A DNA stretch of 55,006 nt, counting the filler, from Sluysia triapertura (Eukaryota): NCBI GenBank assembly GCA_046118255.1. It is 4 parts of 4 records of this genome, joined end to end, with 100 filler letters (N's around TTAATTAATTAA, not from the genome) between each part and the next. Parts side by side here need not be neighbours in the genome. Positions count along the whole stretch, not along the records: positions 1 to 16,817 come from JBJNIA010197487.1; 3 more parts are not named here. One strand, 5' to 3'. Shown in pieces: positions 2,516 to 52,858 of the stretch. Below the pieces are notes generated by a model. It saw only the letters and a program-made list of their open reading frames with translations. It made no database searches and was not told the origin of the DNA. Positions within the stretch are counted from its first letter, which is position 1. Each line of letters opens with the position of its first letter. A program made the translations under genes and the position numbers.

Positions 2516-2829
2516 AAATGATCGTAAAACTGATATATAAGCAGTCATATTTTTTCAGAAAATTAGAAACAAAATAACAAGACAAGAATAGGCAATGATA
2601 ATTAAGAAAATGAAAACGTTTAGTTTTAGGGACGTTACTTCTATTCATCTGCGGAAAACGATTAAATTGAGGCTTATTCTTTATCTATCAACTAAAATAA
2701 ACATTTAAGTGGTTATAAGAAAAAGGGTAAGTAACTTTTTTATTCATTACATTTTAGTTAGTACGGGCGTCAATATTTATTTTAGATATCACCACTAATA
2801 TTAATGTTAATAAATAATAATTATTTTTA

Positions 2830-3075
2830 TTTATTTTTTCTTTTACAACAAATATTTGAAATGTGAAATTTTTTTAATCTTTTATTAATTAAGTTAAAAA
2901 ATTTTCATAACACAAAAACATTAAACTATAATTTTAAAACAATTAACGAAATACTAAATTTTTTAATTAATAAACTAGGCTTAAGGCCTGTAAAAAATAA
3001 CAATTTAAGACAAACAACAAAATTTAACGGTTTATTCATACAATAAAACATAGCGAAAAAGCGTATAAAAGTACT
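2830..3075 (-). repeat. Shared 3' module (copies at ~46070-46295 and ~50085-50260)
   Basis: TAAACTAGGCTTAAGGCCTGTAAAAAATAACAATTT versus TAAACTAGGCTTAAAGCCTTTATACAATAACAATTT (~46205), with weaker flanking similarity. Confidence 0.75.
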
Positions 3076-3199: not shown

Positions 3200-6180
3200 G
3201 TGTAGTAGCTCCGGTATCAAAAGTGACGATTTGATTACTTTTATTGGGTCATTTTCATGATTTTGCACAAGTTTATATTTCGATATTGTCCAGCGATTGA
3301 GATAATAACAGTTTGGTTTTCATTATTAATTTTTATTATTCTATACGAACCTATATATCTTGGCTGCAACGAATGAAGGTTTTCCGCGATCAACCAGACA
3401 TATTCACTATCGGTGATACTTTGTGGTATGTATACATGCGATGAATTATTACTTACTGGTGATTTGTTTAATTCGCTGAAATATTCTCTTAAATGCCTAG
3501 AAAAAACATTTTCTTTTGGTAGCGAAGTTTTGAAGTTCGTATGGTAATCTTTTATTTATACCAAACACGATTTGAGCTGGAAAATATCCGGTAGATGAAT
3601 GTGGAATATTCCTCCCAACCAAGTAGTATAAGGGGCAGTGTATCCGATCAATTGTATTTGATTGATAGTGCCTGCAGTGAACTTTTTACTATGCGGTGAA
3701 ACTGCTCTATCATTCCATTTGATTGCGGATGATAAACTGTGGTTCGTAATCTGGAGCTTCCTAGATGTTTTAATAAACTATTGAAAAGCTCAGATTCGAA
3801 TTGTTTGCCTTGATCGGTAATTATTCTTTTAGGCACACCAAACCTAGCGATCCAATGCGTTACGAGGATATTTGTTATCGTTTCAGTAGATATTGAGAGC
3901 ATTGGAAACGTCTCCAATCAACGACTATGTCGGTCTATGATTGTTAAAATGTAAATGTATGCCCTTGAATTTGGAAGTGGACCGACAATGTCCACGTGAA
4001 TTGTGTCAAAAAGCTGACCGGTTGGAAAATGGAGGATTTCCGGTTTGGTATGTTTGGTTGTTTTTACCGCCTGGCAGGTGAGGCATGCTTTGGTCCAGTT
4101 TTTGACGTCCTTCTGTATAAAAGTCCAAATCACTTCATATGTGGATTTGGCACCTGAGTGCGTTGTGTTATGAATAAATTCGAACGCTTTAATCCTCAGG
4201 TTTGGACCAAGGACTGGCCGTGAAATTCCTGATAATTGGTGATCAAAATACACTCCTTCTCGTAGAGTTGGTGTTGAAGAGAACTTCAATAAATCTTCTG
4301 CTGAAGGAGGATCACCTTTTACATCTTCGATAGAAAACATCGACTGAAATTCGATGCTACTGATGCCAACTAGTGATAAGACATCAGCGACCACATTTTC
4401 CTGCCCAGGGATATGTTGTATGTCGAAATTTAACTGGGACAGGTAGCTGATATGCCTTTGTTGCCTTGGAGAAGGATTTTTCATAGAAAAGATAAATAGC
4501 AAAGGCTTGTGGTCGGTCCGAAGCGTAAATTTCACTGGAATTAGCAAGTATTCGAAGCGTTTCACTGCCAGGTAAATTGCCAAAAGTTCGCGATCAAAAG
4601 CAGAATATCGTGTTTGTTGGTTGAACAATTTATGCGATTAAAATTCAATTGGTCGTGGCACTTCGTTGTGGTATTTGGTTAAAACTGCACCAACTGCTAT
4701 GTTTGACGCATCGGTTGTTAAAATGAATTTTTCATTTGGTAATGGAAACGCTAGACTCTGCATTTTGGTAATGTGTTCTTTGATTTATTGAAATGCAGAT
4801 AACGAAGTTCCATTCCAGTTTATTATTCGCGTCTTTTTTCCAGATGATAAGGCAGTTAGTAGTGCTAAGATCTCAGAGAGTTTTGGAAGAAATCTGCGGT
4901 AGTAATTGACTAGGCCAAGGAAACTCCGCATTTGCGTGACTGTTTCTGGTTACGGAAAATTCCTTATTGCTTCTGTACGGCTTGGTAATGGTTCGATGCC
5001 GTCAGAAGAGATCTCATGGCCAATAAATGCAATTTTAGATTGAAAGAATTGGCATTTCTTTGATTTGATTATTAAATTGTGATCTGCCAGCAGTTTTAAA
5101 ACTTGGTCGAGATGTTCTTTGTGTGAATTATCATCAGTTGAAGCGATGATAATATCATCAATATATGCTGCAACCAATGGTAGACCTTGAAGTATTTGAT
5201 CTATGTGTCTCTGAAAGGTCTGAGCAGCATTTCGAAGACCAAACGGCATTCTTGTATATTCGAATAAGCCAAAAGGTGTTGTAACTGCGGTCTTCGCGAT
5301 ATCCTCTGAGTATACCGGGATTTGATGGTACGCTTTCGCTAAGTCAATCGAAGAGAATAACTTGCAACCAGAGAACCTATGTAAAATATATGTTATTAAA
5401 GGCATAAGATATGCGTCAGGGATCGTGACTTTATTTAGCATTCTGTAGTCACCGCATATCCTGACTGACCCGTCTTTTTTCTTAACTATTTGTAAGGGTG
5501 CCGCACAAGATGAAGAAGATCGGCGCACAATTCCTTGTTTCTCCATGTCGAGAAATTCTTGTTCTGCTTGTGCGCGGACTTCTTGAGATAGTTCCCGACG
5601 ACGTAATTTGCACGGTGCAGTTGGGATTGTTTGAATGAAATGGACAGAGGTAGAGTTATGATATGTTGAAAACTCTTCCCTCAGTAAGTTTGGATATTTT
5701 ATTTCTATGTATTGTGTAACATTCTCTTTATTGATAGAATTGTGGTCCAAACTTATCTGGTTTCTTGTTTCTACAGTCTACCAGGAGTTCGTAATAATCG
5801 AAGAAATCAGCTCCTAGTATTGGTTGTTGCACTGAAGCTATTGTGAAATCCCATTCAAACAATTTATTGAATTTTAGTAAATGGAATTTTAGTTTTTGTG
5901 TTCCTTAACACGCCACGGATAACCCGTTTGCTGCAGTTAAATATTGACTTGGTTGATTCGATTTTCTACATAGCGTGTTAGGAATCACTGATACCGCTGC
6001 TCCCGTGTCGATATGGAATTCTAGTCGTCGGTATATGAAATTTTCGAATATAAACGGCATGGAGAGTGATGCCATTTCGATCGGTTTAGCCGCTATAACC
6101 GATGCACCTTCAGTTTTTTGTTGGCGCTTTGAAGTTAGCGAAGTGCACGCAACCTTCCATTCACTTGCGCGCCAAATTCT
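3200..6180 (-). mobile_element. Decayed Ty3/gypsy LTR-retrotransposon: gag tail plus pol (PR-RT-RNaseH-IN)
   Basis: Gag end ARK*MEGC...KN*; protease HIDTGAAVSVIP (~5980-6015); [38 protein letters not shown]; RNaseH TTDASNIAVGAVL and RELLAIY; integrase HVDIVGPLP, ITDQGKQFES, YHPQSNGMIE. Domain order is gypsy-type. Multiple stops and a frameshift; no LTR pair seen. Confidence 0.95.
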
Positions 6181-6459
6181 TTAGGCCTATATCCAACAAT
6201 ACCTTTTATAAAGGACTAGTTATACTTTTGTGCACTTATCTAATTGTTATGCTGTACAAAATTATTCTATTCTTCCTTAGATAAGGAACTGAATGTAGCT
6301 ATCCTTCCTATAATTTACCCCTACTAACAATTACTTTTACAATTATTATTTGAAAATTATTCTACAAATGTTTGTGTTGAAGTATAAAATGTTTAATGCT
6401 TTTACAAAAATGTTTTATTAGATTATAATGCAAAAAAAGATAGAACAAGTAATATAAAG

Positions 6460-7560
6460 TGTGGTGGCCAACCCATTACGTTAAAAATTTGATATCAACA
6501 AGATATAACAAAATTCCTTTTCAGAACATTTCATAATTGTTAATGCTGGCAAACATTCCATACATAAAATTTCCTAACATTAAAATTATAATTAACATCG
6601 AAATTCATCAATGATATACTTTAAAAAATCATTTCAAAACACTTTAAATCTACAATTTTACAACACCAAAATCACATCTACATTCAAAACCATTAACCCT
6701 CATTAAATTTTATTCAAAACATTTTAAATTCACAAGTTTTCAACATCCAAACTTTGCCTCCATTCAAAACCATCAATGCTCATTTAAAAATTCATTTAAA
6801 ATATTCAAATTCACATTTTCAACATCTAAATCATATTCCACTCAAACCATTAATTTACATTTTAAATTCAATTCAAAACATTTTCAATTCATATTTTTAT
6901 TTCATTTTTGAATGGTTCTTAAAAGATTTATGTACAGATGGAGAAAAATAAGATCTTTTTTGTATAACTTTATTGTTATTATTATTATTATAATTAATAT
7001 TAACATTTTATTGCATTATTAATTATTATTTTCATCATTATTTTAACTATTAATAAGCGATTTATTCATCTCTCGACAGTTAAATTGAATTTAATTAGCC
7101 ACGTCATGTTGGTTGTTCATCGATAACAGCTAGTTGCCAGGATCGAGTGTTTTGTATGTGCTGATTCTGATCTGATTGGACATCCAATAAATACCTCTTC
7201 TTTTATGATCATTGTTATTGTAAGTAGGTGTCCAATCAATCGTCCAACTGGCAGATGCTACAAGCACAGCAAGAATTTATAAAGTTAAATGTGCTACTAG
7301 ATATCAAACAGATTTCAACACCCACTACGACAGAGTACAATCTCATTTAACAAATCTCGGAATCAACTTCAATTTACGGAAGTTACATAGAGAAGTTGTT
7401 GGATCTTGTGGTAACCACAACTGTGTTCCACTCGCCTCCGAAATATACAAAGAATTAAAAGTAATTCTAAATTTTTTATTAAACTTTATTCATTTGAACT
7501 ATTTTTATATCTCATTTATTTTAGAAGAGCGAAAGAAACGATCACGTGGCTTAATCATAA
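6460..7560 (+). mobile_element. Cassette copy A: motif, C/A-rich tract, hairpins, short frame, terminal intron
   Basis: TGTGGTGGCCAACCC 6460-6474; G-poor tract to ~6900; stem TGCCAG/CTGGCA (7135-7253) encloses TGATTGGACATC/GGTGTCCAATCA; open frame VQSIVQLADATSTARIYKVKC...EIYKELK; GT-AG intron 7461-7524. Confidence 0.55.
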
Positions 7561-9247
7561 AAGTCTAGAACATTATGCTGATAAATTTCAAACTTTTAAT
7601 GTGAAAACTAATAAATTAAATTGTTGTATTAGTCCTGATTTACTCGTATTATTTTCTAATTTAAAATTAATTGTTATAATTTTTAATAAACACAATTTTA
7701 GTATTCATTATCAATATTTATTAACTTGTCTCAATAAATTTAAATTAAATTTTCTAAAGAAATTTTCAATTAAATGTAGTAATTCAAGAAATTGTAATTT
7801 ACTCAATAATAAAAAACACAATAATACACCACATAAAGAATGTTATACACAGTAATACACATTTATAATTAAAATCAGAGGGTCTTTACTTATTTTGTGA
7901 AATAAATATAAACTTACCGCGATACATTACCGAAAACAGCAATAAACAAAAACAATATTGTAAAATTGTTTCTTTATATGCTAGTCTTTTTTGAAAAATA
8001 ATTTCTTTTTTGGAAAAATAATACTTCAAAAAGACTTTTTAAATAATTTTAAAGATTGTGATAGCATTTTTTTATTGATTTACAGGGTTGCGATAGCAAT
8101 CTGACATTATATAAGGAGTATTCAGAAAATGTGTTATAATTTGTATTAAAATTTGTAATTATTATTTAACTAGTGAATTATCAAGTTTATTACAATTTTG
8201 AACTGTATTTGATATTATTATTATTATTAATCATGATTTTGAATTATTGAACCTAACTTCTATAGTTATTATAACTAAATTATTTAAAATTTAGACATAA
8301 TCAAAACAGAAGTTTTAAACCCTTCTCGGTCCGATGATTTTATTGGAGTGCTGGTGTCCAGATGTATCTGAATAATTGGAAAACAAACACATTTGTAATA
8401 AATTCCAAATGATTCCTTTGGTAAAATCATTATCTTGTTAACTACATGTTTTCACAATAAATTATAGTATTAATTAGTTAACTTTCTCAGTAGGGCAACT
8501 CAAATAAAGCAATAAGAAATGTTTTTTACCAATTAATTTAATTTTATTATAATTAAAATATGACGTAAACTCAGTTGTAAAACAATTAACATCAACCAAT
8601 TATTTTATTATAAACTTTTATAGTATCCATAGTAAAATACACAAATTAAATTTAACAGTATATTGTTATGTAAGTATTTACTTAGATACATAAAATTAAA
8701 ACCAATTTTATGATATTTTTAGAGAATTTAATTTAAATTTTCGTCAAGACAGATTATTTACTCAAGAATCATTTCAATAAGTAATTAATTTATTAAATTA
8801 CTTTTGTTTCACAATATATTATTCAATAATTCATATAACCAGAAATTACAGTTTGAAGTAATTATTGCATCATTATTACAAGTAATACTAATTATAAATA
8901 TATTTCGAAAAACAGTTAAATTAACGTACCAATTATTACTTACGTTTATAATAAAAATAATACGAACATTCATAAAAATAATAAATTTATTACAATAATT
9001 TTCATTTTTCTGAAAACTAATTTATTCTGTGATTTCTAATTACCATGATTATTTATCTCGAATACTCATAAATCGAATAATATGTTTGTTATTAATTAAA
9101 ATCTTTGCAAAAATAATCAATATTGGTAAAATGTATGTTAATTAAGTTATTGCTTTTGAACCACATGACTTTTATCCGCACAGAACAAACAAGTTAAGTG
9201 ATTCAAAACTGCTATATTATAAATGGTTTCTTTTTCAATTTCGTTCA

Positions 9248-9660
9248 TTGTATACTTGTATTTCATCATCATATGGTTTAGATTTCATTGAATTCACTAA
9301 TTTTTGTTGTAAATACGAATTTGTATTTGGAGTGATTTATTATATAACATTCATTATAATAGAAGTGACTTATTCAAAATTGTCTATTGGTCGGATTATT
9401 AATTTGATTCCAGAAAGTTGCTTTGAAACGTTTACAGCTTTTATAGGTAATGAAGTATCTATTGACAGTGTTATCGTATGTCGAGTATTATGAGTACGTG
9501 AGATACAATTATATATTAATCGTTTTGCTGTGGTTTTATGTCCTAAACTTAACCTAATCAGCAAAATAGATTAACAGAGTTCGCCTACAATATACGGCTT
9601 ATCAGTATTTGTAAGTGCGTGAACGTAATTAATATGCAAAGAAAGATTCAATAGATTGCC
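9248..9660 (+). pseudogene. Possible decayed coding remnant, unidentified
   Basis: The 81-aa ORF continues in frame past single stops (VIVCRVL*VREIQLYINRFAVVLCPKLNL). No motif recognised. Confidence 0.25.
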
Positions 9661-9949
9661 TTACTAGTTAAGTGAGGATTATTGATTTCACTAAAGGAAG
9701 ATTTTATGTTAAAGTTTATGAATTTTCAATTACTCAATGATTCGTATATTAATAAATTATTCGCAATTGTGTAATAAAGTGAAAACAAATGCTATTAAAG
9801 TATATTATATCAAAATATCGACAAATTATTAACACAATAGTTTATGTTAAAAGAACAAAATTATACAGACAAATTATTAATATTGCAATAATAATAATAA
9901 TGATAATAATTTTAATTCCTCATACCTAGTCTAAACAAAGGCTCGGTCT

Positions 9950-10630
9950 AATTATGATTGAAATTTAAAATGATTTAAAATTTAAAAACAATTAAATCGC
10001 ATTTAAAAAAATCATTTAAAACATTTAAGTATCATTTTATAACATTAGAATCACAATTACATCTTTAAATTTTACCTAAAATGTCTAACATGAATTTAAT
10101 ACATCATAAGTTCACAATCTCATCATTTAGCTTTTTAGTCTTTCAAAGATAATAAAGACCTTTAAATAATGTCTTATTTAAACAGAAAGTTCATGTAATT
10201 TTCAAAAAGTTTATGCAATTTAGAATAATAGTAATAATAATATTATTTTTGTTATTGTTACTATCATCATTTTAATTTTTCATTATTTTTAATAATACTT
10301 TTATTAATTTACTAAATTTGCAACTACCACTATCAACAGTGACACTATTAATTCATACTTACAGTTTATTGTCACTATTGATAGTGGTTGTGTTTTCAAC
10401 ATACGTAAAATCTTACTATTACTCATCAGTCGACGGGCATTTTAAATCTTTTGATGTTGCTTTACTAACTGTCGATTGATGACGGTTCTTTGTTAGTGTT
10501 TCTGAGTATTTTGATGATTGCCCAATTAAAATTATGAATATCACTATCTTTTTGTGTTTTGATTGGGCAACCATTCACATTATGAAAAAGATTTCTCATC
10601 ATAATTTCTTGTTGTCATTGTTAGTTTAAA
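9950..10630 (+). repeat. Cassette copy D leader: 5'-truncated C/A-rich tract plus three long hairpins
   Basis: Tract resembles 6615-6740 and the reverse complement of 22380-22510. Hairpins at 10326-10388, 10423-10482 and 10518-10570. Confidence 0.65.
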
Positions 10631-10651
10631 AAACATAATATTAAAACTTAC

Positions 10652-11582
10652 TTTAGAGATTTTTATCTTAAAAATAAAAACAGCAATGGCAATTAACAAT
10701 AAAGAAGACATGCAGCGTAGATTAAAAGCTCATATAGAATTAATAAATTTCTCTTCAAACGTGGAAACACACATTACAATAACTCCAAGAATTAATGATA
10801 AAGAAAATTTTGAAATAACTACTCTACGATTTGATGTTGTAAATGATAGCATCAGAGAACAAGTTGAATTTATAATTGATTGAGAAAATAGATGCCGAAA
10901 GATGTGACTTAAGTATTAATTCTTTATTTTTAGATGAAGATGTATTTGTTTATGAATAACTTGGTTACAGTAAAGATTTAGAAAATAATATTATCTGTTT
11001 TATTGGAATCAGTGCTAATCGAAGTCAAGAACATTATTTAAGAATTTTACGATATTTTAGATTTTCTGGAAGAATCCAATCCATGCGTTGAAGAAATTTT
11101 ATCTGATATCAAACGAAATCCCGATAGTCTAAAAATTATTATCGGTGAATATATTTTGGCAGAATTGAATAAAATTATTAAAGGTAAACACGCATGTGAT
11201 ATATTAAAGCGAATGTTTAAAGTAAATTTGTTTTCTTATATCGATTTAGTAAAAAATAATTTTTAAACTAAGAAAAAACGATTTTGTGAGTTTTATGAAA
11301 ACTTACAGAAAATTGATGCTAAAAGTGCGACGTTTGTAAATTAATTATTGATAATGAAAAGGAAGTAGAAATTATTCGCAAGCGTTTTAAGTTAAACAAT
11401 AATGACTTATTTATTATGCGTTATTGATTTGATAAATGTGATACGAAGGTGACATTGAAAAATTAACAAGATGATTTCATAATATGCGATATTAAAAAAG
11501 AATTCAACATAATCGATTGGAAATATGTCAATTCGAATCGTTGAAATTACTAGGAAGACCAGAAACAATTGATGAATGGTCT
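10652..11582 (+). pseudogene. TRNT1: Intronless decayed copy of the CCA-adding tRNA nucleotidyltransferase
   Basis: Across frameshifts: ETHITITPRINDKENFEITTLRFDV...VEFIID*; DAERCDLSINSLFLD; [12 protein letters not shown]...[19 protein letters not shown]; IGEYILAELNKIIKGKH; ETIDEWS. These match animal class II CCA-enzyme motifs as I recall them ([49 protein letters not shown]). RRD and EDxxR motifs are mutated. Confidence 0.9.
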
Positions 11583-12149
11583 TTAAAAAAGAACAACGTT
11601 CAAACTGATACTACCAAAACTCAATTAATCCGATCAGATCTGGACGATGAGTCACGACACTTCAAGTCTGGTTTGTGTCTAGATGCTGTGACCTAGACGG
11701 AACATGTATAAGGTATGGTAGTAACTTATCCTGGACGTCACGCTTAACGAATCATAATCATCGAATTCAACAACTCGTTTCGTCATTGAGAGAAATATCT
11801 TTGGACAATAACAAATGTCATAACTTAAAAGTAATCATATTTTTTTATTCTAATCTTGTTGATACTCTTATAATCATGTTTTATTATCCCTTAATATTTT
11901 TTAGAAACCTGGAAAGTTTGCCTTTGAAACATGCCAAGGAAATGATGTGCAAGAAACGTATTTCAAAATTAATTGTCAATAAATTTTTAAATTTAAGTTT
12001 TCTTCATTCATTTAATGTTAAAAAAGATTGTGAAATGTACCAAAGAATGTTTAAACTTTAATGCTAATCTAAATATTAAACTAAAAAATGTACGAATTTA
12101 TTTAAATTTAAAAGTTCTAAATCCTAAATTTCAACGTATACCCCAACAC

Positions 12150-12620
12150 TTACATCTTATTGGTCTGGAGATCCACGCCTGAAAGTTTTAGATCAAGCTT
12201 ACGTGTTTTACTAGCACTACGAGAATTAATTTTATGCGTCTTAGCGTCACTTTTCTCATTATTCAGATTACATTTATGTTTACATGACCTTGTCGAGAGT
12301 GTTGTCTTCAGTAACATTAAAATTATTATCATCATCATTATCAACCCAAACTTTCCTAACACTTTTCAAATGTAAGATTCGCAAAATCATCCGTCATTAA
12401 TTGTTCTGCGATGCGTTCATTTTGGAGTCCAAACAGAAAAAATGGTTTGCAACACTTTATTACTTATAGACTCCCGTTTACTTTGTTTTGATTTATTGAG
12501 AAATTTACTGCTTCATAATATGAATGCACATAATACGAAATATTTGTAATATTTTACATTATCATAGTTATCTTTGGGTTCTCTTGATCTGTCATGTGTT
12601 TAATTCAAATCTACCCAATA
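12150..12620 (-). mobile_element. Remnant of an LTR-retrotransposon gag
   Basis: Minus frame FLFGLQNERIAEQLMTDDFANLTFEKC (~12360-12445) resembles the gag FxxGL...I...LL....LT.EKA signature; stops on both sides. Confidence 0.5.
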
Positions 12621-30371: not shown

Positions 30372-31750
30372 TCAGGGACCTTGTAGGACATGGTCGCGGT
30401 ATGCGTTATTCGAGGACTCCACAGCTAGTCGTGCACACTGGTGCGAGGGTCTTGATTTCGGTCTTGTGGAAGCCAAGTGCCTTGAAAAACTTGTCATTCT
30501 CGGAATCCCATGACACCAAGGCTCCAACGACACCAAGAGGCACCTTGCACTTCAGTTGTTCATGCAGTTTACCCTGACGATCAGCATACTTCGCAATAGT
30601 GATAGTTCGGATTATTTCGAAGGTTTTTTTCAGGACCATGGGAGTCATGATATCAAACAAGAACAGTTGGGATGAGGAAGTACCCATGGCCTGTATGTCA
30701 GGTCGCCGAGTGTCACTGATAATTGGTGTAGGTGAATCCTTATTCCGGTTATTTAGTTTTTGACTTCGAGATAAGTTCGGTGTATTTGATGTTCTTGTTT
30801 AGTAAATCATGAATTCTGTACCGTTTATAGTCACTAAATTGAACGCCAAGATATAGAGTTTCGTTTTCGCTGGTGACACATGAATCGGAGTATTTTCGAT
30901 GAGTATGGAATATCTCGAGTCCCGGGATGTTATAGTTGAAGAAGCATTTCGTAGGCAGGAATATGAGGTTGGCTGATTTCGCATTTTGGACAACTCCGTT
31001 AACAATTTGTTGTAGTCCATCGAAGGTAGTGCCGATGAGGGCTATATCGTCAGCACATGCTACGTATGGAAGAAATTTCTGGTCATCAGTTATTTTGATG
31101 TAGTCATCATCCGTGAACTGGAGGACAGAATAGTGTCATGGACAATGGACATCCTTGTTTCACTCCATACATGATCGGTACGGCTTTAGTTATAATACCA
31201 TTGAATTTGTAGGTGATACTGCTGCCTTTATATAGGTCCTTCAGGATGTTCAGGGTTTACTGTTGGAGTCCCATACTTGAGAGTGTATGCCATATTAGAT
31301 TGCATTCGCCAAGTCGAGAAAGACAATGTGTAATTCGATTTTGCGCGATTTATCGACTCCACTATTTCTTTAAGTGAGTGGAGTAGGAAGTTGTGCTCGG
31401 TGCATCCATCTGATTGGAGAAGAGCAGCTTGGTGTGTACTAATGAGGTTGCCACTTTTGATCCATGCCAGTAAGCGGTCATTCAAGATCTTGGCAAAGAC
31501 TTTATAATTGCAGTCCACTATAGGTATATGTCTCTGTGAAGCGACGTCTTGCGCCAAGTCATATTTATTGGGTTTGATTATCAGTAGAGTGTTGTAGTTC
31601 TTCCAAGCAGTCAGGAATTTTTGGTTGATCAAGATTCTGTTAAAAGTTGACCAGTGGGATCGGAATTTCTTAAATTCTCAAATGTTATGACTTGGTTGTG
31701 GCCTGATGCTGAGTGGTGAGGATCTCAATCTCCAGGATGGTATCAGTACT
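30372..31750 (-). mobile_element. Decayed, internally deleted RLE-type non-LTR retrotransposon (NeSL/Utopia-like)
   Basis: RT motifs QAALLQSDGCTEHNFLL, FLDLANA, YGVKQGCPLS, YVACADDIAL. Endonuclease motifs RRPDI...LFDIMTP...AKYAD, VVGALVSWDSENDKFFKALG, SSNNAYRDH. Frameshifts present; zinc knuckle not seen. Confidence 0.85.
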
Positions 31751-32039: not shown

Positions 32040-32290
32040 AATAATTAATATTTTTCTTAGTGTTTGTTGCGTCACTCGTGGTTTCATTAGATAGATTGTT
32101 ATATCCTTGATACTATTATAAACGTTGTTACTCATTTTTAGTATTGTCTAATGGAGATTTATAATAATAATAATAATAATAACAATAATAATAATTTGAT
32201 TTTTGTTTAACGAGTAAATTATTGTGTTGTTATTGATTTGATTTTCAATGGCTTAATTTTGGGGTGAATAATTATTATTATCAAAGTTTG
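32040..32290 (-). repeat. Inverted copy of 44360-44600
   Basis: Reverse complement shares AAGCYATTG.AAATCAAATCAA...ACACAATAATTTAC...TTAAACAAAAATCAAA and GAGTGACGCAACA.ACACTAA. Confidence 0.8.
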
Positions 32291-32401
32291 AGAATAACTG
32301 AAAATTTATATTTAATATAGTGACCACTTAAATTATTGCGATTTTATTAAAGTTAATTAATTTGATATTGATTTAGCGTAATTAATAATTTTCAAAGACG
32401 C

Positions 32402-32447
<46 letters not shown>

Positions 32448-35576: not shown

Positions 35577-36900
35577 TGTAGTGACCAACCTTAATAACCA
35601 CTAAAATTTTAATAAAAACTAATATCCTTTTCTTCTCTTTTCATTGTACTTAAACAGACACACATCTATCTATTACATACCTTTTAAAACTAATCTATAT
35701 CCACAATTTTACAACATCCAAATTATATTAACCATTTCACCAGAAACATTACTCGACAATCACAACAATCCAACAACAAACGCATTTGAAATAATATATT
35801 CAATACTTTCGAACCCTTTATTTTACACTACACTTTAATAATTAATACCTAATATTTAATAATATTTATTCATTAGTTTATTTGCTTAACCCAAATCACA
35901 ATCACAAACTTACAATACATGAACCATAATCACATCTAATACCATTTCACAACACCAATAAATCTACTCGAAACATATAAAATACCTACTTCATATCTTC
36001 GAATCAATCACAACATTTAAAACTCACTATGCATCTAAGCATAATCATCAACAACACAGTACAACAAAAACATCAAATAAATGAATCACACAAAACATTA
36101 TACAATAACATCTTAAATATACCAAGATTTATATTGTAATTGTCCTTTTAGATTCATTAAATTACAATCTTCTCAATAAGCCTTTCATCCACGATATTTC
36201 AATACATAAAATTTGTTTTCAAATATGAACTTCAATCACTATCGAAGAACCTATTCTAACATTCTTTATTTTATTTCAAGACTCAAATCAATTATTATAT
36301 CTTCATAGGTTAATTATACTTACCAATTCACTCGAAACAATTATTGCTCAGATGCTTATTCCAAAGTACATTTTTTATTCATTTTAATGTCTTACAGACC
36401 TTCAAGAAATTAAAGAAAATCGTATACAGTTTTGAAGAATTCAATTTTATATAATGAAATAACAACGATAACTCGAGCATAGTACACCCTGTTATCGTTG
36501 CTGTTTTATATTTTATATTTTATTTTTTATGTGTAAGAAGTATATAAAAGAAAGAAAAGATCGTATTATATTATTTTCAAAGAATTTTATGCATTATCTT
36601 TGATTTTCTTTTTATTAATAATAATAACAATATTATTGTTATTATTATTATTATCAATTATTAAGTTAATTATTGTACAGATTTTATAATCATTAAAAAC
36701 TTGTTACTACCACCACCAGTGTTGACACTACTCATTACAATTTTCATTAAAGTGTCAACACTGATAATGGTCAATCATCAGCGTTTTTGGTTTATACATC
36801 TAAATTTGTATATTCTGCCTGTCATCCAATCAGGTAGAATTTCACTAATTATATATCACAATCCCTGATTGGATGAGGAAAGGCAAGCTAAATAAAGAAT
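35577..36900 (+). mobile_element. Cassette copy C leader
   Basis: TGTAGTGACCAACCT 35577-35591; ~800-bp G-poor tract; perfect stems CAACGATAAC/GTTATCGTTG (36463-36500), CAGTGTTGACACT/AGTGTCAACACTG (36717-36763), TCATCCAATCAGG/CCTGATTGGATGA (36822-36876) inside TGCCT/AGGCA. Confidence 0.65.
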
Positions 36901-42947: not shown

Positions 42948-44359
42948 TAATAATAAGCGTAAAATTTTATTAATATTAAAATTTTATTAATTTTAGCTAA
43001 AAAAATTAAGTACTTTCTGTACTTTTAGAATTAATGCATGCACATTAAAAAAAAGTATAAATAAGCGCCGATTGTGTAGATCTCGCCATCAAAATTTTAG
43101 TAAAAATTCGTTTAATAAAAAATTTTAAATAACGGTTAAAAGAAAACAGCTCGCCACACAATAAGCATTATCTATTTTCTTAGACAAGCATTTTACGTGA
43201 GTCGAAACAATTTCTAACTATATAAATTAACAAATATACTTTTATGTTTTAACAAGTAAACATTATAGAGGGTTTTCTCTTGTCGTTTTTAACTTAAGCA
43301 TTTTACAAACATATCTAACTACTAGTATTTTTCTTACTTTCGAAAATTACCTCCTAACTTAAAGGTTCGTTTACAGTCTACGTTTGATCTCAAATAGAGG
43401 ATGCAGCTGTAAAAAGTACGACTAAAATAAATTCTTCAAATGATGGTCTACTTAATTCAATATCTAACTTTCGAAAATCTAATTAGTATACTGAGCAACA
43501 ACAAAAATTATCGAAATTATATAGTAACAAAAGTATGATAAATGTAAAGATTACTTAATAAAATATAGAAATCAACAGAAATTTAAGTCTTACAGATGTG
43601 AGGCAGTCCTTGCAGAAAATAGATTCCAAATAAAATCCAAAAATGTATGAGTAGCTGACTGCTCAATGTGTTCCAAATCCATTATTTGTTAAATGTTGTC
43701 TTCTGTTTTCTTGTCTTATTATTTTAAAGGTGATTTTTATAGAAAGTCGATGAATCTAAAAATTGGCAATAAAAATTTTTAAAACAAACTCAAAAATAAA
43801 TTCAGTATTAAAAAACTAATAAAATTTTCAGTAATAAAACTTTTTTAAAATAATACATTAATACAAAATCATTAAATCAAATTTTTGTTATTTTCCTCAA
43901 AGCTGCTATCATCAGTCTAATCCTCACAGGAGGTTCTAATGATGTGTATAAGAAAATGTTTGGTATTAAAACTCAAGAGTGCTTGGTTAATGAGAATGTA
44001 TAAAATGCAATAATTGTAAAATTTTACAACTCAAATAATGTTCGTGCAGGACAATGAAAGATCTATGATATAATCGTTTCTTAATGTTTTCAATCTTCAT
44101 TAAGGTCTCAAAACCTTATATAGGTCTTTGGAACTCCAAAGTATACTTCAACTCTTAAAATTATTAATAGATGTCTTCATTTATAATATTCTATATATCT
44201 CTTACTCATTTGTTGATACACACTTTGGCAATTCCAACGGTATTGTTGCATCTTTAAAAATTGTTAGCTATGATAATTCAATATTATTTTAATTATATTA
44301 AAAGAATCTTAATAATTTAAGTATTTACTATCTCAAGTATAATTTTTCAGTAATTCTTT

Positions 44360-45510
44360 TACTTAATATCAATAATTATTTACCTCAAAAATAAGCTATT
44401 GGAAATCAAATCAAAAATAACACAATAATTTACAATTAAACAAAAATCAAAATATAATTTATTGTCATTGTAAATCTCTACTAAAAAATATTCACACTGA
44501 CTAAAAAAGCCAAGATTAATAATAATGTTTAGAATAATATTAAGGACACTAGAATATAACTAAAGAAAACAGGAGTGACGCAACAGACACTAAAAATATC
44601 AATATCTAGAAAGTGAGGATTCATGATACTGCCTAAATATTTTTAGATAATTTAACCAAAAGGATGAAATATTATAACAAAAATTTTGAGCAGAGATCCT
44701 TCCTAAAATTTAACAATAATATAAAAAAATTAATTTAAAAATAAATTGTGCAGGGTGTCTCACAAAACTAATTTTAAAGTCCCAAAAAAATAAATTGCAA
44801 AGGGACTCCCCACTAAATGATTTTTTAAAATCCTTTAAAAACAGATAAAATAATAATGATGATAATAATAAGAATTTTAAGACGACATTAAAATAATAAA
44901 TTAGAATAATAAAATAATAAAATATCCCTATAAAAAGTATGGACCATCTTAATTCTGAAAATCTTGTGATTGTGTGATTGTGTTGTAAAAATTTAGAAGT
45001 TTTTATTGTACATTTCTCATCATCCAATCAATCCACAGTCTCACAATTAAATACTCTCACACAAATCATCCAAACTTCTTTGAGAATCAAACCGACAATA
45101 ACAAATTTGACAATTACATGGTACGGTATGTCAAACTTCATTAGGTACCCAACATATAAATTTGATTTATTATCAACCATTATTTCCTTTTACTCTACTC
45201 AATTTATTTTCACTTAAATTACTTCTCATATTAAAATAAAAATTAACAATATAATATTGTTAATATATATAAAAATAATGAATTTGATTTCACTTTTTAG
45301 AATTTAATTAATATTCGATTTTTTACACCCAATTTTCTAATGAAAAATGTTTTAAGCTTCTTATTCTCAAACGAACCATTCTACAAACATTTCAAACTCA
45401 CTTATATATTCTCCTATTTCATAGCAATCATCTCATATTTCATTCATTACATTTGCATCACTCTAAGTATAAAAAAATATAGAAAAATTAATTAAAATTT
45501 GACTTTGGTC
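44360..45510 (+). repeat. Long repeat module, copy 1
   Basis: 44940-45510 aligns by eye with 49548-50069 (CTTTGAGAATCA, TTGATTTATTATCAACCAT, TACTCTACTCAAT, TTTCACTTTTTAGAATTTAATTAAT, ACATTTCAAACTCACTT). The upstream part shares the TRACGCAAC motif and spaced GC islets. Confidence 0.85.
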
Positions 45511-46069
45511 AATATTAAAGCTTTCCTTGCATGAACTCGGTTAAACTATACACAGTTTCAAATTTAACATAGCATTTCTCATTCGAAAGTACTTTTTTTA
45601 GTTAAGTTAAGATTTTAATTAATTAATCTATTTTTAGACTTAATTTTATTTTATGTTTAAATGTTTATTAAGGTTCCTAGACTATTTAGTAAGTTATAAG
45701 ACATTCAGGAGGCTATAGATGTTTTCACCTTCACCTGTCCGATTCATTTTTCTGCCACATTAAACTTGTCTTCACTATTTTAAACAAAGATTTTATTTTT
45801 CAAATATTTTAAAGATTTTATACATTTTATAATATTATTCGAAGATCTTCAATGCTTATCAAGGTTTCCAGAATACTTAAAGATTAATAAAGTCTCAGAT
45901 TAGCTCAAAATTAACAAGCTCAAAGGTATTCTAATGCCTTAAACCCTCCACAAGGTCTTGAATGTCAAGGTATTCTTTAGCTGTTATTATTATTATAACA
46001 GCGATGATATGGAGAGGGCTTTTTAGGTTTTGTAAATATTAAATTAAAATTATTTATACGTAATTTTTT

Positions 46070-46295
46070 AAATGCACAAAAATTATTAGAAAAATGAAAT
46101 TTTATTTTTATTTTTTTATTACATAAGTTTAAAATTTTATCTAAAAAAGAACATTTTAATTTTAATTTTCTAACCATTAACAAACTGTTAAATTTATGAA
46201 TTACTAAACTAGGCTTAAAGCCTTTATACAATAACAATTTAACAAAAACGATGAAATATGAAACATTGAAGTAAAACGTAAAAATGCACTTACAA
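46070..46295 (-). repeat. Shared 3' module downstream of the CLASP copy
   Basis: AGGCTTAAAGCCT at 46211-46223 with flanks similar to 2830-3075. Confidence 0.75.
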
Positions 46296-46588
46296 TATAA
46301 GAATATAGTAGTAATAAGCGTCCAAATTTTATTATATGAACTGTTGATGCATAAACATCAAAAAATGTTAAGCATAAAATACTAAAGTGAATAAATTTTA
46401 AAATACTAAACTTCATGAAATGTTTACCATATATTTAGTAATAAAAATTTCGAAATATGACGATGACAAATCCAAGACAAACAGCAATAAATATTAGATA
46501 AAAAGCGTTTGCTGTTTTTACCTTTTTACAAAAATACAAAATTGATTTTTTATTATAGTATTTCAATTGGTAAAAATGTAAATAATTT

Positions 46589-48344
46589 CTATTTAATTCT
46601 ATTAACATACAGTTTTAAAAGATAAACTTTTGGTCGAGGAAACACTTTTAACTGAGGCCATATTTTATATTCTATTTTCTTGTATATTTCAATTAAACAG
46701 AATATAGTCCATTTTCTGAACAACAATTCTTTGTGATTTATAAAGATATTTAAAATAGCCAAAGTTTCCACTGACATTACATTTATAATGATGGAACTAG
46801 TGGCTCCTTTGGTAGCTCGCAAAAATCGCAATGCAGTTAATTTATCTATCGACTTAGTCGATTGCGGTGTTACGTCAATGATAAACGTATTTAAAGTGTA
46901 CCAAAGTGTATTTGTGTTGACACTTTGCAAAAATAATCATGCACGATGTGTTGCTTCTACGACTTCATTGTCGATATCTGAGAAATTAATAATCAGTTCT
47001 TCTGCCACCTGATGCATGGACTCCCGAAATCGTTCTGGTTCTGTTTTGGCAATTTCTTGAATAGAATCGATTGCTAATTTTCGAATGTTACCTTCATTAT
47101 AACTGAGACATTTGAGCAGCGCGGATGTTACTTATCCGAAATGAGTATCCCAGTCGAATTGTTTAACCGAGTAAATCCAGTTAATGGTAGAAATCAGTCG
47201 GGAACTTTCAAGCGGATCATCCAAATTCTTCAAGATCTCCTTCAATTCCATATTGTAATCTGCAATAATAGATTTATCAATGTTCATTGTTGCTTTATTT
47301 CTATTTTTATTTTTCTCATTACCATGTCCATATTCAACAATATTTTTAATCGAATATGACTCAGTGAAGTTTCTTGATGATTCATGATTCGAATATTTAC
47401 TATCCGAATAACTTTTCTGTTCCGTATTCCTTTTTTACTTTTACATAAACTATCATGACTTTCTGAAATGAAATCGTTGATCCTGTATCTCCTCGGAAAC
47501 AATCTGTTTTCTGCTGAATGGGAGACATACGAGTTTTACGACGATTAGATCTACTCTCCCGTTTGCTGTTGGCATTGGTTTATTATTGATGTCATTTCGA
47601 TTATATGTATTAAATTGGGATGGGGTGGTTCAATAACTCGTGTTAGACTTTGTGTATGTAATTTCTTCCGAAGAACCTTCTGACAACGCAATAGTTTTGT
47701 TTACTAATGCCATCTATTGCACCTTAAAGATAGGGTTATTTTCAACAGTTTTCGAATTATTTTTATCAGCGACAAAATGTGCAGCCATTCTAATGACTCC
47801 TTGAATATTATAATCATTGATAATTTGATCGTCTGAGAGCAAAAGTCTTTCTAACATAATTAAATAAACAATTAAAGTCACTAAACAAGAAATATTTAAT
47901 ATACAATTTGTTGCTACGACAATCTTGGGTAATTTTACTTCACGAGTTAATATTTTCTTAGCAAATTGTTTAGAATTTACAAAATTTCTTATGCACAAAG
48001 ATTGAGCCTTAACATTGAAATTCTAAACTCTCAATATATCACTGTATCGATGAGATGGTTTACATGAGCACTCAATCTACTGATATTTTAATTAATTTTT
48101 GAAAAGAATCATTGCGTATAATATTCTCGTAATTGAATTAGTCCAGAAATACGAAGAACTGACCGAATAATTATGAAATATTGCTTCACAGCAGTACTAT
48201 TATAAAACCATAATACATGTGAGTATTTACCAACGAACGTAAGCTTTAGTAACCATGGATTCTGAAATGTGTCCAACAAAATCATTTGATTGGATAAAAT
48301 CATAAATGAATCCTGGTATTAGCACAAATAAATATATGAATAGA
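46589..48344 (-). pseudogene. CLASP: Decayed copy of the CLASP/Orbit C-terminal region
   Basis: Frame ~47434-46589 with stops at 47134 and 46939: WDTHFG*VTSALLKCLSYNEGNIRKLAIDSIQEIAKTEPERF...DNEVVEA...FRKWTIFCLIEIY...PKVYLLKLYVNRIK*. Matches recalled CLASP WDEHFK...IRALAL...QPARF...KEVVRSA...VRKACVFCL...KMKLLNLYIKR. ORF 47714-47998 weakly resembles TOG3. No introns in the C-terminal block. Confidence 0.8.
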
Positions 48345-48692
48345 CTGGGAAAAACAAAAAAATAAAAAGAGAGTTTAAAAATAAGGATAAAAGAAATAAT
48401 AATGATAACAACAACATGATTATTATATGTTTAAAAATAATGATATTGTTGATGTTAATATGAAAGTTATTATAAAAATTATTATTTGATAATCATATTA
48501 TATAACAATAATGACAATAATTATTATATATATTGTTTAATACGATTTGAACTGTAGTTCATAATAATTATGTGCAATAATGTTTGTTTTTTGAATGATT
48601 TTAGTAATTTGTTTAGTGATCTATGTATATGTGAAATGTTTTTACGTGATGAAGTGTGATGAATTTTGAGTGATTTCCCTACAAATATTATG
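48345..48692 (-). repeat. Leader module: C/A tract, ATT tract, polypyrimidine tract and CAG acceptor
   Basis: Ends TTTTTCCCAG|TCTATTC; homologous to 1-85 and 54150-54415. Confidence 0.65.
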
Positions 48693-49099: not shown

Positions 49100-50069
49100 G
49101 TTCAATCCTAACAAAACTCAAAAAATAAATACAAATTACCACAGTAATCACAATAATATAAATGATTTAACTAGAAACTATAACAATTAAAAGAAAATTA
49201 ACAATAACTTTTACAACAATATTAACCCTTGTCAAAAGAAAAACCAGAGGTAACGCAACGAAAATTAAGATTTGACAAATAATACAAAACAAAATCAAAA
49301 TCGAATATTGGGCAGAGTATCTCCTACAAATAGTTAAAAATGAAATAATATACTTAAAATATTTTAAAATAAATTTGGCAAAGTGTTTCACACAAGTTAA
49401 CTTAAAAATAGCTAAAAATCAAAATCAAATACTTTAAAAATAAATTGAGTAGGGTTTAGCCCACCAAGTTAAATTATATTAAAATTGTTCAATAAAATTA
49501 TAAATAAAATTAAATGAAATTAATAAAAATTACCGACAGCATGGAAATGGGCCGCATGAATCGCGGCTGGTGTGGTGATGTTAAAAATTTTAAGTTTTTC
49601 ATCTTATACTCTTTTCATCCAAACACTTCTCAATTTCACAATCAAACACACAAATCATCAAAACCTCTTTGAGAATCAGACCTACAATAACAACTTCGAC
49701 ACTTACGTGGTACGTTCTGTCAATCTTCATTAGGAAAAAAATTGATTTATTATCAACCATCATTTTCTTCTACTCTACTCAATCTACTTTTACTTAAATA
49801 ACTTCTCATTAAAATAACAATGAATAATATTATTAACATGTATAAAAATAATGAATTTAATTTCACTTTTTAGAATTTAATTAATTTTATAATAAAAAAT
49901 GTTTGAGGTCCTTATTCTCAAACACACTATTTTGTTAACATTTCAAACTCACTTTTCAATTCTTCTTTTTCGTAGCAATCACCTCATATTCAATTCATTA
50001 TAATTCATCATTATAAATGTGAAAAATTCAACATTTCATAATTAAGAATTAATTAAAATTTGAATTTGC
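49100..50069 (+). repeat. Long repeat module, copy 2, abutting the stop codon of the 486-aa ORF
   Basis: Homologous to 44360-45510; contains TGTGGTGATGTTAAAAATTT (49571), reminiscent of the cassette start at 6460. Confidence 0.85.
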
Positions 50070-51530
50070 TCATATGGGCGTGGAGGTGTTATTATTATTG
50101 TTTTTAGGTTTCAAAACTTTAATTTTACGTTTATTGTATAATAATTTATGATCGTGAAATATGTGCTTAAGGCACTTAAAAAGTTTTAATTGAATACTAA
50201 TGTGCTTAAGGCACTTAAAATTACAATTTCTGAAGCAAAAGCAAGTATAATACACTGAAATTATATTATTAAAACCTTTGAACACATCTACAACTATTTT
50301 ATTTTTAAATTGAATCATGAATAGTTTGTTCATAGCTAACATGTTCAGTGACAGCCGGATTGGTATATTAGCATTCCCGTGTCCAATAGTTACTGCTAAG
50401 CGCGAACCGAATTCTCCGTCCCAGACTCGATCTGTCTTGCCCATACTTCCATAGAGAGTGGCCCAGGTGACTTCACTATGTTCGGTAGAATAAGATGGTT
50501 CAGGTAGAATAGGATAAAAATATTTAAGACAACGAGTAGTTTTATTTACCTCTTTATTGAGAAATATAAAGTTAAAATTAAATGACGTAAATACAAGATA
50601 ATTAATTTCAAAGTTTTTTGAACCTGATGACAACATAGTAGTTCTCAATTTCACAAACTCTTCAATAATGAAACCACTATCTAAGGACACACGTAAAACG
50701 TCTCTAGTATATTTAAACTCATGGTCGATCAGGTCTTTATTTATATTAAAACACGTACAATTTAAAAATCCTTTAATATAAAAATTAATGTTTAAAGATA
50801 TATCTTTAAAAACTTTTAATTCATTATGGGTTAAGCCCCTATTTATAACAAAACACACGTAATTTAAAAATTGCCCGACATTAAAATCGCTACTCGATAA
50901 CGCGTCTTTAAAGCTTTTCAATTCGTGATCCATTGAGTCTTTATGGATTGAATCACACGACGCGTAATAAATCATAGAGTTTTCAAAAAATAATTCGCTC
51001 AACAACAGCAGGCATACATCATGGCACCTCGTGATCACTGGGTAGTCAGATTCATTAGTTCGACTATTCGAATGAATCTCCACATTACTGTCCTTGTATT
51101 TGTGCGGCCCGCGACGCAGCATTTCATTAAAGTCATCCTTTTTAAATGAAGGTAGTCGCTTGGACTCGTACATAGTCACTGGAAATTTCATAACGTTGTT
51201 GTTTAAGGTGAGACAATCGCGACTTTCGAATATACCTGTGTCTTCTACATATACAGAAGGAGAACATGGTGCTCTATGGATAATACTTTCATTCTTTTGC
51301 AGATAATCCAGAGCATTACACAATTGACAATCTACTGATGCTATGAAATGCCCTGAAGATGTACTGAAGGCATCTTTTGATGGTGAATCATTATTTGTTC
51401 CATACTTCGGTCTGCAACGTTTAATCTTAATATATAAATTACTAAAAGGAACATCATTTACGCTAAGGATATTGTGGCGTTTCAATAACTGGATTAATGG
51501 AATAACATCTGATATTTCATTCATTTTCAT
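50070..51530 (-). CDS. Intronless 486-aa protein of unknown function
   Basis: 1461-nt open frame in very AT-rich DNA; possible acceptor AACCTAG|GTTATTGATCAG-ATG upstream. No domain recognised. The last ~65 codons overlap the shared 3' module. Confidence 0.75.
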   Translation of the reverse strand: MKMNEISDVIPLIQLLKRHNILSVNDVPFSNLYIKIKRCRPKYGTNNDSPSKDAFSTSSGHFIASVDCQLCNALDYLQKNESIIHRAPCSPSVYVEDTGIFESRDCLTLNNNVMKFPVTMYESKRLPSFKKDDFNEMLRRGPHKYKDSNVEIHSNSRTNESDYPVITRCHDVCLLLLSELFFENSMIYYASCDSIHKDSMDHELKSFKDALSSSDFNVGQFLNYVCFVINRGLTHNELKVFKDISLNINFYIKGFLNCTCFNINKDLIDHEFKYTRDVLRVSLDSGFIIEEFVKLRTTMLSSGSKNFEINYLVFTSFNFNFIFLNKEVNKTTRCLKYFYPILPEPSYSTEHSEVTWATLYGSMGKTDRVWDGEFGSRLAVTIGHGNANIPIRLSLNMLAMNKLFMIQFKNKIVVDVFKGFNNIISVYYTCFCFRNCNFKCLKHISIQLKLFKCLKHIFHDHKLLYNKRKIKVLKPKNNNNNTSTPI

Positions 51531-52858
51531 CTGATCAATAACCTAGGTTAATTATTTCGGAATTTTTTAGACATCAAAATTAACAAAACTTCAAAAAATG
51601 GAGCGGAAAAATATTATTCAAACAAAAATGACTTTTAGCTTAATTGCATATAAAAATAAAAATAATNNNNNNNNNNNNNNNNNNNNNNNNNNNNNNNNNN
51701 NNNNNNNNNNNNNNNNNNNNNNNNNNNNNNNNNNNNNNNNNNNNNNNNNNNNNNNNNNNNNNNNNNNNNNNNNNNNNNNNNNNNNNNNNNNNNNNTGAAA
51801 CATTGACTAAATAATTGTATTACTAGATTAACTCATATTTTTGTAAACTCGCAGAGGATTTAAATTTGCTGCAACTCATTAAAAATAAAAAGCAGATCAC
51901 AAATTATTCATTTATCATTTTGTCTCTGATTTTCTGAATCCCACTAATATTTAATGATGATAGTTGATTTTGTGAAATAGATTGAACATGTGAAATGGAA
52001 GACACTATTATCTGCTTACAACGAATGTTATCTATAGCTACAGAATCATTACTTATTTAATTTACTGTGCGTACATAAATGATTCAATAAATCCGTGTTT
52101 CTTTGTAAACACATACAANNNNNNNNNNNNNNNNNNNNNNNNNNNNNNNNNNNNNNNNNNNNNNNNNNNNNNNNNNNNNNNNNNNNNNNNNNNNNNNNNN
52201 NNNNNNNNNNNNNNNNNNNNNNNNNNNNNNNNNNNNNNNNNNNNNNNNNNNNNNNNNNNNNNNNNNNNNNNNNNNNNNNNNNNNNNNNNNNNNNNNNNNN
52301 NNNNNNNNNNNNNNNNNNNNNNNNNNNNNNNNNNNNNNNNNNNNNNNNNCTCCACAAATAAAACTTGTTTATTGGATATTTTGTCCCTGTTTTGTCTAAC
52401 TGAAATGCTACTATAATAGTAAACAGAACAATTACATCATTCGAGATAATGAACCATCAACAAAGGCACAAGCCATAGTCAATAGGATCACAACAATATT
52501 TCACAGTTAATATAGAATGATGGTGTTATAAAAGATGCAATTTTTTGTGATCAACAAATTCATAGACCAATCAATTTCATCCAATAAAAATTAATCAGCT
52601 ATGACCAACCACAGAAGAAGATTCATTTACTTAAAACATAGATCCAATTAACGTTTTGACAATTAACAATTTGGCATGCTTCTCATTAATTTCATTATCA
52701 AATGTCAACGAAATATTCGTATATTACTCAGAAACGTATTCTGTTTGCTAAAGCTTATTAGAGTATTTAATGTAAAAATATAGTTATTTACATTTATCCA
52801 ATACAACAATCTGACAAGAAAATGTTCAACATTTTTTGAAACTATATATTTATTGTTC

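Follow-up and report, generated by a model that had tools for sequence, protein, structure and literature searches.

Conserved hairpins between the shared leader and the cargo of a many-copy mobile element in Sluysia triapertura

Three tandem hairpins (HP1 to HP3, Table 1) stand between the shared leader and the unit-specific cargo of a many-copy mobile element in the AT-rich animal genome of Sluysia triapertura, and selection is likely to act on their pairing. We tentatively regard them as RNA helices that act in cis, within the leader of a non-autonomous element mobilised by an integrase, a reading that we hold at a little under an even chance. The stretch of DNA analysed (the window, 55,006 nt in four joined parts) is mostly 18–30% G+C with few long open reading frames, and positions below count along it.

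Position and stability of the hairpins

The three stems of 14–19 bp with loops of 25–32 nt (75–80% A+T), noticed in a sequence-only reading of the window, are all confirmed at the positions in Table 1. The mismatches given by that reading (one C–A in HP1, G–U only in HP2 and HP3) are correct for the stems as it drew them, and lengthening the HP3 stem by four pairs adds an A–C at 10517/10571 that it had omitted. Comparison of fold stability with shuffled sequences, a check which it had proposed, gave for 10316–10580 a z score of −6.47 on the + strand and −5.23 on the − strand, and none of 200 shuffles folded as stably on either strand. When the entire window was scanned without regard to strand, only four hairpins scored 28 or more, namely HP1, HP3 and two at 36709–36876, and ten scored 23 or more. 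Twenty block shuffles gave zero to five hairpins at the lower threshold; at the higher one two of them gave a single hairpin and 18 gave none, and three hairpins within 260 nt were seen in 0 of 20. ARAGORN gave no match at cut-off, and a scan of metagenome contigs with the HP1-arm pattern returned 0 matches.

Table 1. Features of the hairpin-bearing unit and of its sister units.
Feature	Position	Strand	Remarks
Leader of the hairpin-bearing unit	9930–10200	+	C/A-rich; homologous to the leaders at 6460 and 22745
(AAT)n/(ATT)n tract	10217–10300	+	Directly before HP1; present in sister units too
HP1	10326–10344 / 10370–10388	+	19-bp stem, 25-nt loop, one C–A at 10337/10377
HP2	10423–10436 / 10469–10482	+	14-bp stem, 32-nt loop, two G–T
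HP3	10518–10531 / 10557–10570	+	14-bp stem, 25-nt loop, one T–G
HP3, extended	10514–10574	+	14–18-bp stem, CCAAT/ATTGG core
Cargo, decayed TRNT1-type CCA-adding enzyme gene	10582–11554	+	Frameshifts, stops
Probable 3' end of the hairpin-bearing unit	12141–12148	+	..CCAACA; contig depth single-copy beyond
Complete sister unit	6460–7833	+	1374 bp, TGTGGTG..CACCACA, 5-bp target duplication
Sister unit with RING-finger cargo (21108–21503)	20551–22745	−	Start and leader as in the 6460 and 35577 units
Sister hairpin set	36709–36876	+	Unit starting at 35577; HP1 homologue 36709–36771, probable HP3 homologue 36822–36876

Conservation of pairing among copies

Copy diversity was read from the contigs of a single sequencing run, possibly the window's own source and hence not independent support, of which 231 align on 10316–10580 at 80% likeness or more. 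Contig depth is not copy number, and the variant tables are per site and unphased rather than haplotypes. Site counts within 10316–10580 leave out the two outer arms, 5' in HP1 and 3' in HP3 (about 31 nt at each edge), and were made among the variants listed, with nine of 49 variant rows outside them. On this basis 5 of 68 stem sites vary, against 23 of 72 in the loops and 5 of 62 in the spacers (231 contigs). The contrast between stems and loops has a Fisher p of 2.7 × 10−4 among the variants listed, would weaken to p = 0.18 if all nine remaining rows fell in stems, and is biased because the stems anchor the alignment of distant contigs. Contig depth is about 1500–2560, 360–990 and 660–1510 over HP1, HP2 and HP3, respectively, and about 160–480 over the spacers, a profile of peaks and dips which indicates that distant copies retain the hairpins and lose the spacers. 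Together with five contig joints that link hairpin parts across 64–136 nt, this profile indicates that HP1 and HP3 are more widely shared than HP2 and the spacers. HP1 is the family's most widely shared hairpin, while HP2 is covered by fewer copies and is missing or replaced in others, and a given hairpin variant is carried by up to 47–48 contigs. The variants in the HP1 loop, checked by eye, do not fit a reverse-strand alignment artefact.

Two comparisons bear on the pairs themselves. At 10518/10570 in HP3 this copy has T–A and the majority letters are C (89% of depth, 20 contigs) and G (94%, 48 contigs; both unphased), so that both states pair. HP1 aligns without gaps to its homologue in the sister set, with a loop of identical length that matches at 14 of 25 sites. 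Among the 19 pairs 12 are unchanged, three are changed on both sides (all Watson–Crick) and four are C–A in one of the copies, and the inner arms differ between the units. For these two sequences the shuffle of a covariation tool reaches the same double changes in 65 of 500 cases, which is not significant, and our own calculation, including the clustering of changes, gives p of about 0.003–0.009. The second hairpin of the sister set, probably the HP3 homologue as judged from sequence, has a CCAAT/ATTGG core as in HP3 with other flanking pairs, and the T–G of HP3 is C–G there.

Double changes would also be produced by templated copying, and arms kept matched at the DNA level by occasional correction of one from the other are an explanation that we consider possible but unlikely. 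The proposal of the sequence-only reading that selection acts on RNA structure in the cargo-sense transcript survives in part: pairing is conserved through changes that affect both arms, and the hairpins immediately precede the cargo on the cargo-sense strand, but the supposed G–U bias does not hold. A dimerisation signal, also suggested there, is disfavoured by the variable loops and the lack of a G+C palindrome. The search for a conserved self-complementary loop yielded only A+T hexamer palindromes, at variable sites and unshared between copies, and loop–loop duplexes are weak (−8.5 kcal/mol at best). What is conserved in the three hairpins is the helix and its approximate spacing and not the loop, which argues against dimerisation by kissing loops.

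Mismatches and strand of action

The G–U bias had been read as a sign of an RNA of the + strand and is unsupported, as a tally over both copies (this one and the sister) and the family variants listed gives five G–U and six C–A mismatches (binomial p = 1.0). The C–A of HP1 is a minority variant (90% of depth has a pairing letter), and so is the G–T at 10429/10476 in HP2, where 79% of depth reads otherwise and is Watson–Crick. The other G–T in HP2 (10435/10470) is absent from the listed variants, and for the T–G at 10527/10561 in HP3 the variant check covers the 5' side only. Listed stem variants contribute two more G–U (14% and 6%) and one A–C (8%, its partner outside the listable range), the sister HP1 contributes three C–A, and the lengthened HP3 stem contributes its A–C. 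By predicted energy HP1 is more stable antisense than sense (−31.4 vs −25.9 kcal/mol, and −32.3 vs −22.5 in the sister copy), and HP2 and HP3 are more stable on the sense (+) strand. As the leaders share a G-poor sense strand with the Gypsy and LINE fragments of the window, the C–A mismatches may themselves be products of mutation pressure, which softens the case against the sense strand.

Most copies have near-perfect Watson–Crick stems with no strand bias, as would also be expected if the inverted repeats acted as DNA, either as paired protein sites or as single-stranded hairpins, in the promoter or end of a cargo-carrying Ginger- or IS481-like transposon. We think this unlikely, though it is the main rival reading. 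It would account for HP1 having the same spacing in two units whose loops have diverged, and for the inverted CCAAT/ATTGG pairs, 40 and 42 nt apart, that form the HP3 core (the CCAAT of which may be an NF-Y site) and are found in the 6460 unit as well. On the other hand, the three double changes in HP1 fall between the shared motifs, where independent binding sites need none, and of the nine CCAAT/ATTGG pairs in the window six are found elsewhere than in these hairpins, which makes the motif by itself common.

The element family

The start motif TGTRGTGRCCAACC occurs at 6460 (+), 35577 (+) and 22745 (−), where 0.21 occurrences are expected and 1 of 100 shuffles reaches three; these sister units begin TGTRGTG and each start opens a C/A-rich leader. 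The leader at 9930–10200 resembles those at 6460 and 22745 (z = 7.8 and 5.1, respectively; 0 of 100 shuffles). It shows no direct likeness to the leader at 35577 (z = 0.0), the links between the two being the 6460 leader (z = 3.4) and HP1. Several contigs join a 6460-type leader to the hairpin-bearing unit (6777–6879 to 10030–10044), for which no TG start was found in this copy, its 5' end being lost. The 48683 and 49571 units have a similar layout and were not counted as members, as their leaders do not align significantly.

In the complete unit at 6460 the end at 7833 is the inverse of the first seven letters, and the chance of such a duplication-flanked end within 6 kb is about 2 × 10−4. 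This unit carries a TGATTGG/CCAATCA hairpin at 7174–7237, in a region (7130–7265) that is not significant as a whole (z = −1.6); an HP1-like candidate there was dropped (z = 0.9), and no hairpin comparable to HP1–HP3 was found in 20551–22745. The 6460–7833 and 22745–20551 units both run from TG to CA, their termini matching in inverted orientation over a short, imperfect stretch, and among the three starts tested a 4–6-bp target duplication was seen at 6460 and at neither 35577 nor 22745. Neither a primer-binding site (PBS) nor a polypurine tract (PPT) stands beside any of the 11 termini checked in the window, and direct repeats at both ends were absent from the three units compared (start vs end, z = 0.0–0.4), so no full LTR element is seen. 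The same two absences leave solo-LTR-like units or DNA transposons with short inverted ends, and the lack of PBS and PPT is expected for solo LTR copies and for a DNA transposon alike. On balance, and with modest confidence, we take the units to be solo-LTR-like, the alternative of DNA transposons with very short inverted ends being doubtful. Packaging signals are normally located outside the LTR, a point against the reading of the hairpins as RNA helices of such a unit. Terminal inverted repeats of 40–270 bp were not found, the inverted match in 6460–7833 being 7 bp and the inverted comparison giving z = 0.3 and 0.4 for two units; the truncated hairpin-bearing unit gave z = 4.3 (1 of 100 shuffles), in AT-rich sequence.

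The 3' modules share no protein that we could find. That of the hairpin-bearing unit has a GT..AG intron-like segment (11825–11906, +), and the same donor and acceptor pattern recurs elsewhere in the window only at 7455, in the 6460 unit. Retention of this segment in two units fits copying at the DNA level better, and so counts in favour of the inverted repeats acting as DNA.

Cargo

HP3 ends 7 nt before a candidate ATG at 10582, which from its position would be the start of the cargo, although the profile alignment falls short of it. The cargo matches Pfam PolyA_pol_RNAbd (27 bits, cut-off 22) and the human enzyme (E = 9 × 10−6); its 5' fragment gave homologues, 38 in all, the best being insect proteins in a word-limited search, and its middle fragment gave no match. 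Positions 102–373 of the 451 in a TRNT1 profile built from 33 proteins match 10725–11554 in three frames. This match is collinear (272 profile positions in 830 nt) and thus shows no introns, and the region of the first catalytic motif is without alignment, which marks the copy as a pseudogene. The cargo of the 22745 unit is a RING finger (E = 6.5 × 10−8). Frames of the 6460 and 35577 units gave no match, and an atlas search with the 35577 cargo gave scores all under 0.9.

Small-RNA, translational and coding explanations

The arms are conserved and the loops free, as in a small-RNA cassette that yields the arms as its product and discards the loops, and the hairpins measure 57–69 nt. Canonical miRNA precursors have a stem of about 33–35 bp and give stacks of reads on the arms. 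The continuous helices here are only 14–22 bp, pairing in the flanks of the stems is broken and differs between copies, and the inner arms of HP1, as noted above, are not shared between units. On the + strand the loops of HP2 and HP3 contain runs of four or five T, and no B-box pattern was found on either strand; HP1 taken alone is followed by T4 on the + strand here and by T5 on the − strand in the sister copy. HP1 weakly matches miRNA models of Rfam (28.6 bits, cut-off 80), but no Rfam family reaches its gathering cut-off in the window, and the seven weak matches in 6400–12300 are far under it. Short stems and T-runs in the loops speak against a cassette of the Pol III or canonical miRNA kind, so that the small-RNA precursor offered by the sequence-only reading is disfavoured in its canonical form. 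A cassette within the LTR, of the type found in foamy-virus U3, has a precedent in the system described in PMC6950176 and seems to us improbable here.

The hairpins stand directly before the cargo here, and in the 35577 unit a long frame begins about 50 nt after them, as might be expected if the helices controlled translation of the cargo as an IRES or ribosome shunt. The profile alignment that stops short of the ATG, the loss or replacement of HP2 elsewhere and the antisense preference of HP1 make this very unlikely. Least probable of all, and by our estimate barely credible, is that the conservation of HP1 partly reflects an overlapping short Thr-rich frame past a hydrophobic stretch, with the hairpins as by-products. 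The variable sites of the HP1 loop are indeed scarce at one codon position (1 of 8 vs 11 of 15; p = 0.009 before correction for three phases), and a Thr-rich frame is similarly placed in the 22745 unit. However, stops arise in this frame in two of the variants listed, at 8% and 12% of depth, the copy at 36.7 kb has a stop in the loop, the HP3 loop is without a phase pattern, and the frame leaves the double changes, HP2 and HP3 unexplained. The Thr-rich frame of the 22745 unit (21800–22060, −) lies between two hydrophobic stretches, at about the place that HP1 takes in its sisters.

Possible mechanism and comparison with known systems

If HP1 to HP3 act as cis-acting RNA helices, the units would have been inserted by a Gypsy-type integrase, as solo LTRs or as non-autonomous elements derived from LTRs, and transcription would begin in the leader and pass the hairpins before reaching the cargo. 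Proteins of a helper retroelement might then recognise the helices in the element transcript, reading helix shape rather than loop sequence for the packaging or handling of the RNA, and reverse transcriptase and integrase would be borrowed from a retroelement. Reverse transcriptase pausing at the HP3 base could lead to a template switch by which a copy of a host mRNA enters the slot. The TRNT1 cargo, free of introns over its aligned part, would fit such RNA-based capture, as expected for retrocopies (PMC5131818). Extended in this way the proposal is of a cassette vector, in which a fixed leader with covarying hairpins amplifies captured copies of host mRNAs (CCA-adding enzyme, RING finger and others) and the hairpins serve as both mobilisation signal and capture site. 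We regard this extension as speculative and rather improbable. The CCA-adding enzyme could even serve the element by repairing the ends of primer tRNAs.

Several related systems have been described. In LTR-mediated retrocopies the cargo replaces the internal sequence between two LTRs (PMC5131818), and LARD-type elements are non-autonomous LTR elements (PMC6431247). The units studied resemble both in having an intronless host gene copy, integrase-type ends and later amplification, but here the cargo occupies a fixed slot behind the hairpins, within a single TG...CA unit that lacks direct repeats at its ends. Among the non-autonomous LTR elements of tapeworms (flatworms), ta-TRIM and lennie have many solo LTRs and 4–5-bp duplications, 5-bp duplications thus being known from tapeworm LTR elements, and for them a packaging signal conserved in structure only has been proposed (PMC4558846). 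Unlike them, the units described here are 1.4–2.2 kb or more, lack PBS and PPT and carry captured coding sequence.

The TGTNR termini of the units are typical of Gypsy LTRs, which suits the LTR reading, and are also those of Ginger1 and Ginger2, which can hold introns (PMC2836005); the likeness to Ginger speaks for the DNA explanation. Ginger1 and Ginger2 have terminal inverted repeats of 40–270 bp and mostly 4-bp duplications according to the same account (PMC2836005), against the 7-bp inverted ends and 5-bp duplication of our complete unit. Animal Pack-TIRs, DNA transposons that capture host sequence, have a median insert of 224 bp as summarised in PMC8277862. The units share with Ginger elements and Pack-TIRs the TGTNR termini, tolerance of introns and capture of host sequence, and differ in that they have no 40–270-bp repeats and no transposase was seen, and that their cargo looks RNA-derived and is longer than 224 bp. 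Foamy-virus miRNA cassettes likewise cluster several hairpins inside an LTR, but these are Pol III dumbbells of 111–128 nt (PMC6950176), whereas the hairpins here are three separate short helices with large loops and no clean Pol III layout. Burro, a giant Gypsy element of planarians, has captured host domains, the cargo lying in an internal polyprotein (PMC6431247); a possible likeness is to flatworm Gypsy-like elements rich in such domains. As the units lack a defining feature of each of LTR-mediated retrocopies, Ginger elements and foamy-virus cassettes, we do not place them in these groups and regard them as a cargo-carrying, integrase-ended variant. No published description of the family was found in the literature searched, which covered neither Repbase nor most subscription papers.

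Conservation of shape alone makes structured cis-signals of non-autonomous elements hard to find, and the present candidate offers natural double changes and many copies, making it testable with one assembled genome. Were the slot model true, whole host genes would be amplified inside a single LTR-like unit, unlike capture between two LTRs; were the element a DNA transposon, the hairpins would be a more ordinary feature of a promoter or end.

Other features of the window

A broken Gypsy-type pol (protease, reverse transcriptase, RNase H and integrase) lies at 3244–6180 (−), and the 6460 unit is just upstream of it in the opposite orientation. Another TG-start family with a C/A-rich leader and an ATT tract is present at 46550–48683 (−) and 1–75 (−). 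Its cargo is broken with weak HEAT-like matches, its leader is not significantly similar to that of the hairpin family, and the sequence at 48240–48325, which contains a CCAAT core, is structured (z = −2.7 sense, −4.4 antisense). The unit ends on the − strand at 1712, 20551 and 24221 are related (..CCCAACA; 1712 vs 20551, z = 35; 1712 vs 24221, z = 8.7). A 1.6-kb stretch with 93-bp inverted repeats, 90% complementary (18724–20328), is likely to be the remnant of a DNA transposon, and 30409–31677 (−) holds a broken reverse transcriptase fragment (RVT_1, E = 0.0012) of a type that by eye appears to be non-LTR. The segment 52862–53831 (−) holds the last two coding exons, with a Gly/Ala-rich tail, of a host E(z)/EZH2 gene. 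Among its 120 homologues the best totals are to tapeworm, about 224 bits, vs 218–221 for molluscs and other animals, which by a thin margin makes this animal host probably a flatworm. At 50070–51542 (−) some 490 codons form an open frame that has no Pfam match; searched against 1.84 billion representatives, it matched mostly WD40-repeat proteins and in one case a kinase-domain protein, all weakly and over short lengths. Repeat pairs of about 75% identity are formed by 32044–32408 and 44241–44603 (inverted), 44980–45511 and 49575–50072, and 2808–3023 and 46037–46257, and a tandem array of about five copies of a 36-nt unit, 96–99% alike, lies at 15114–15299.
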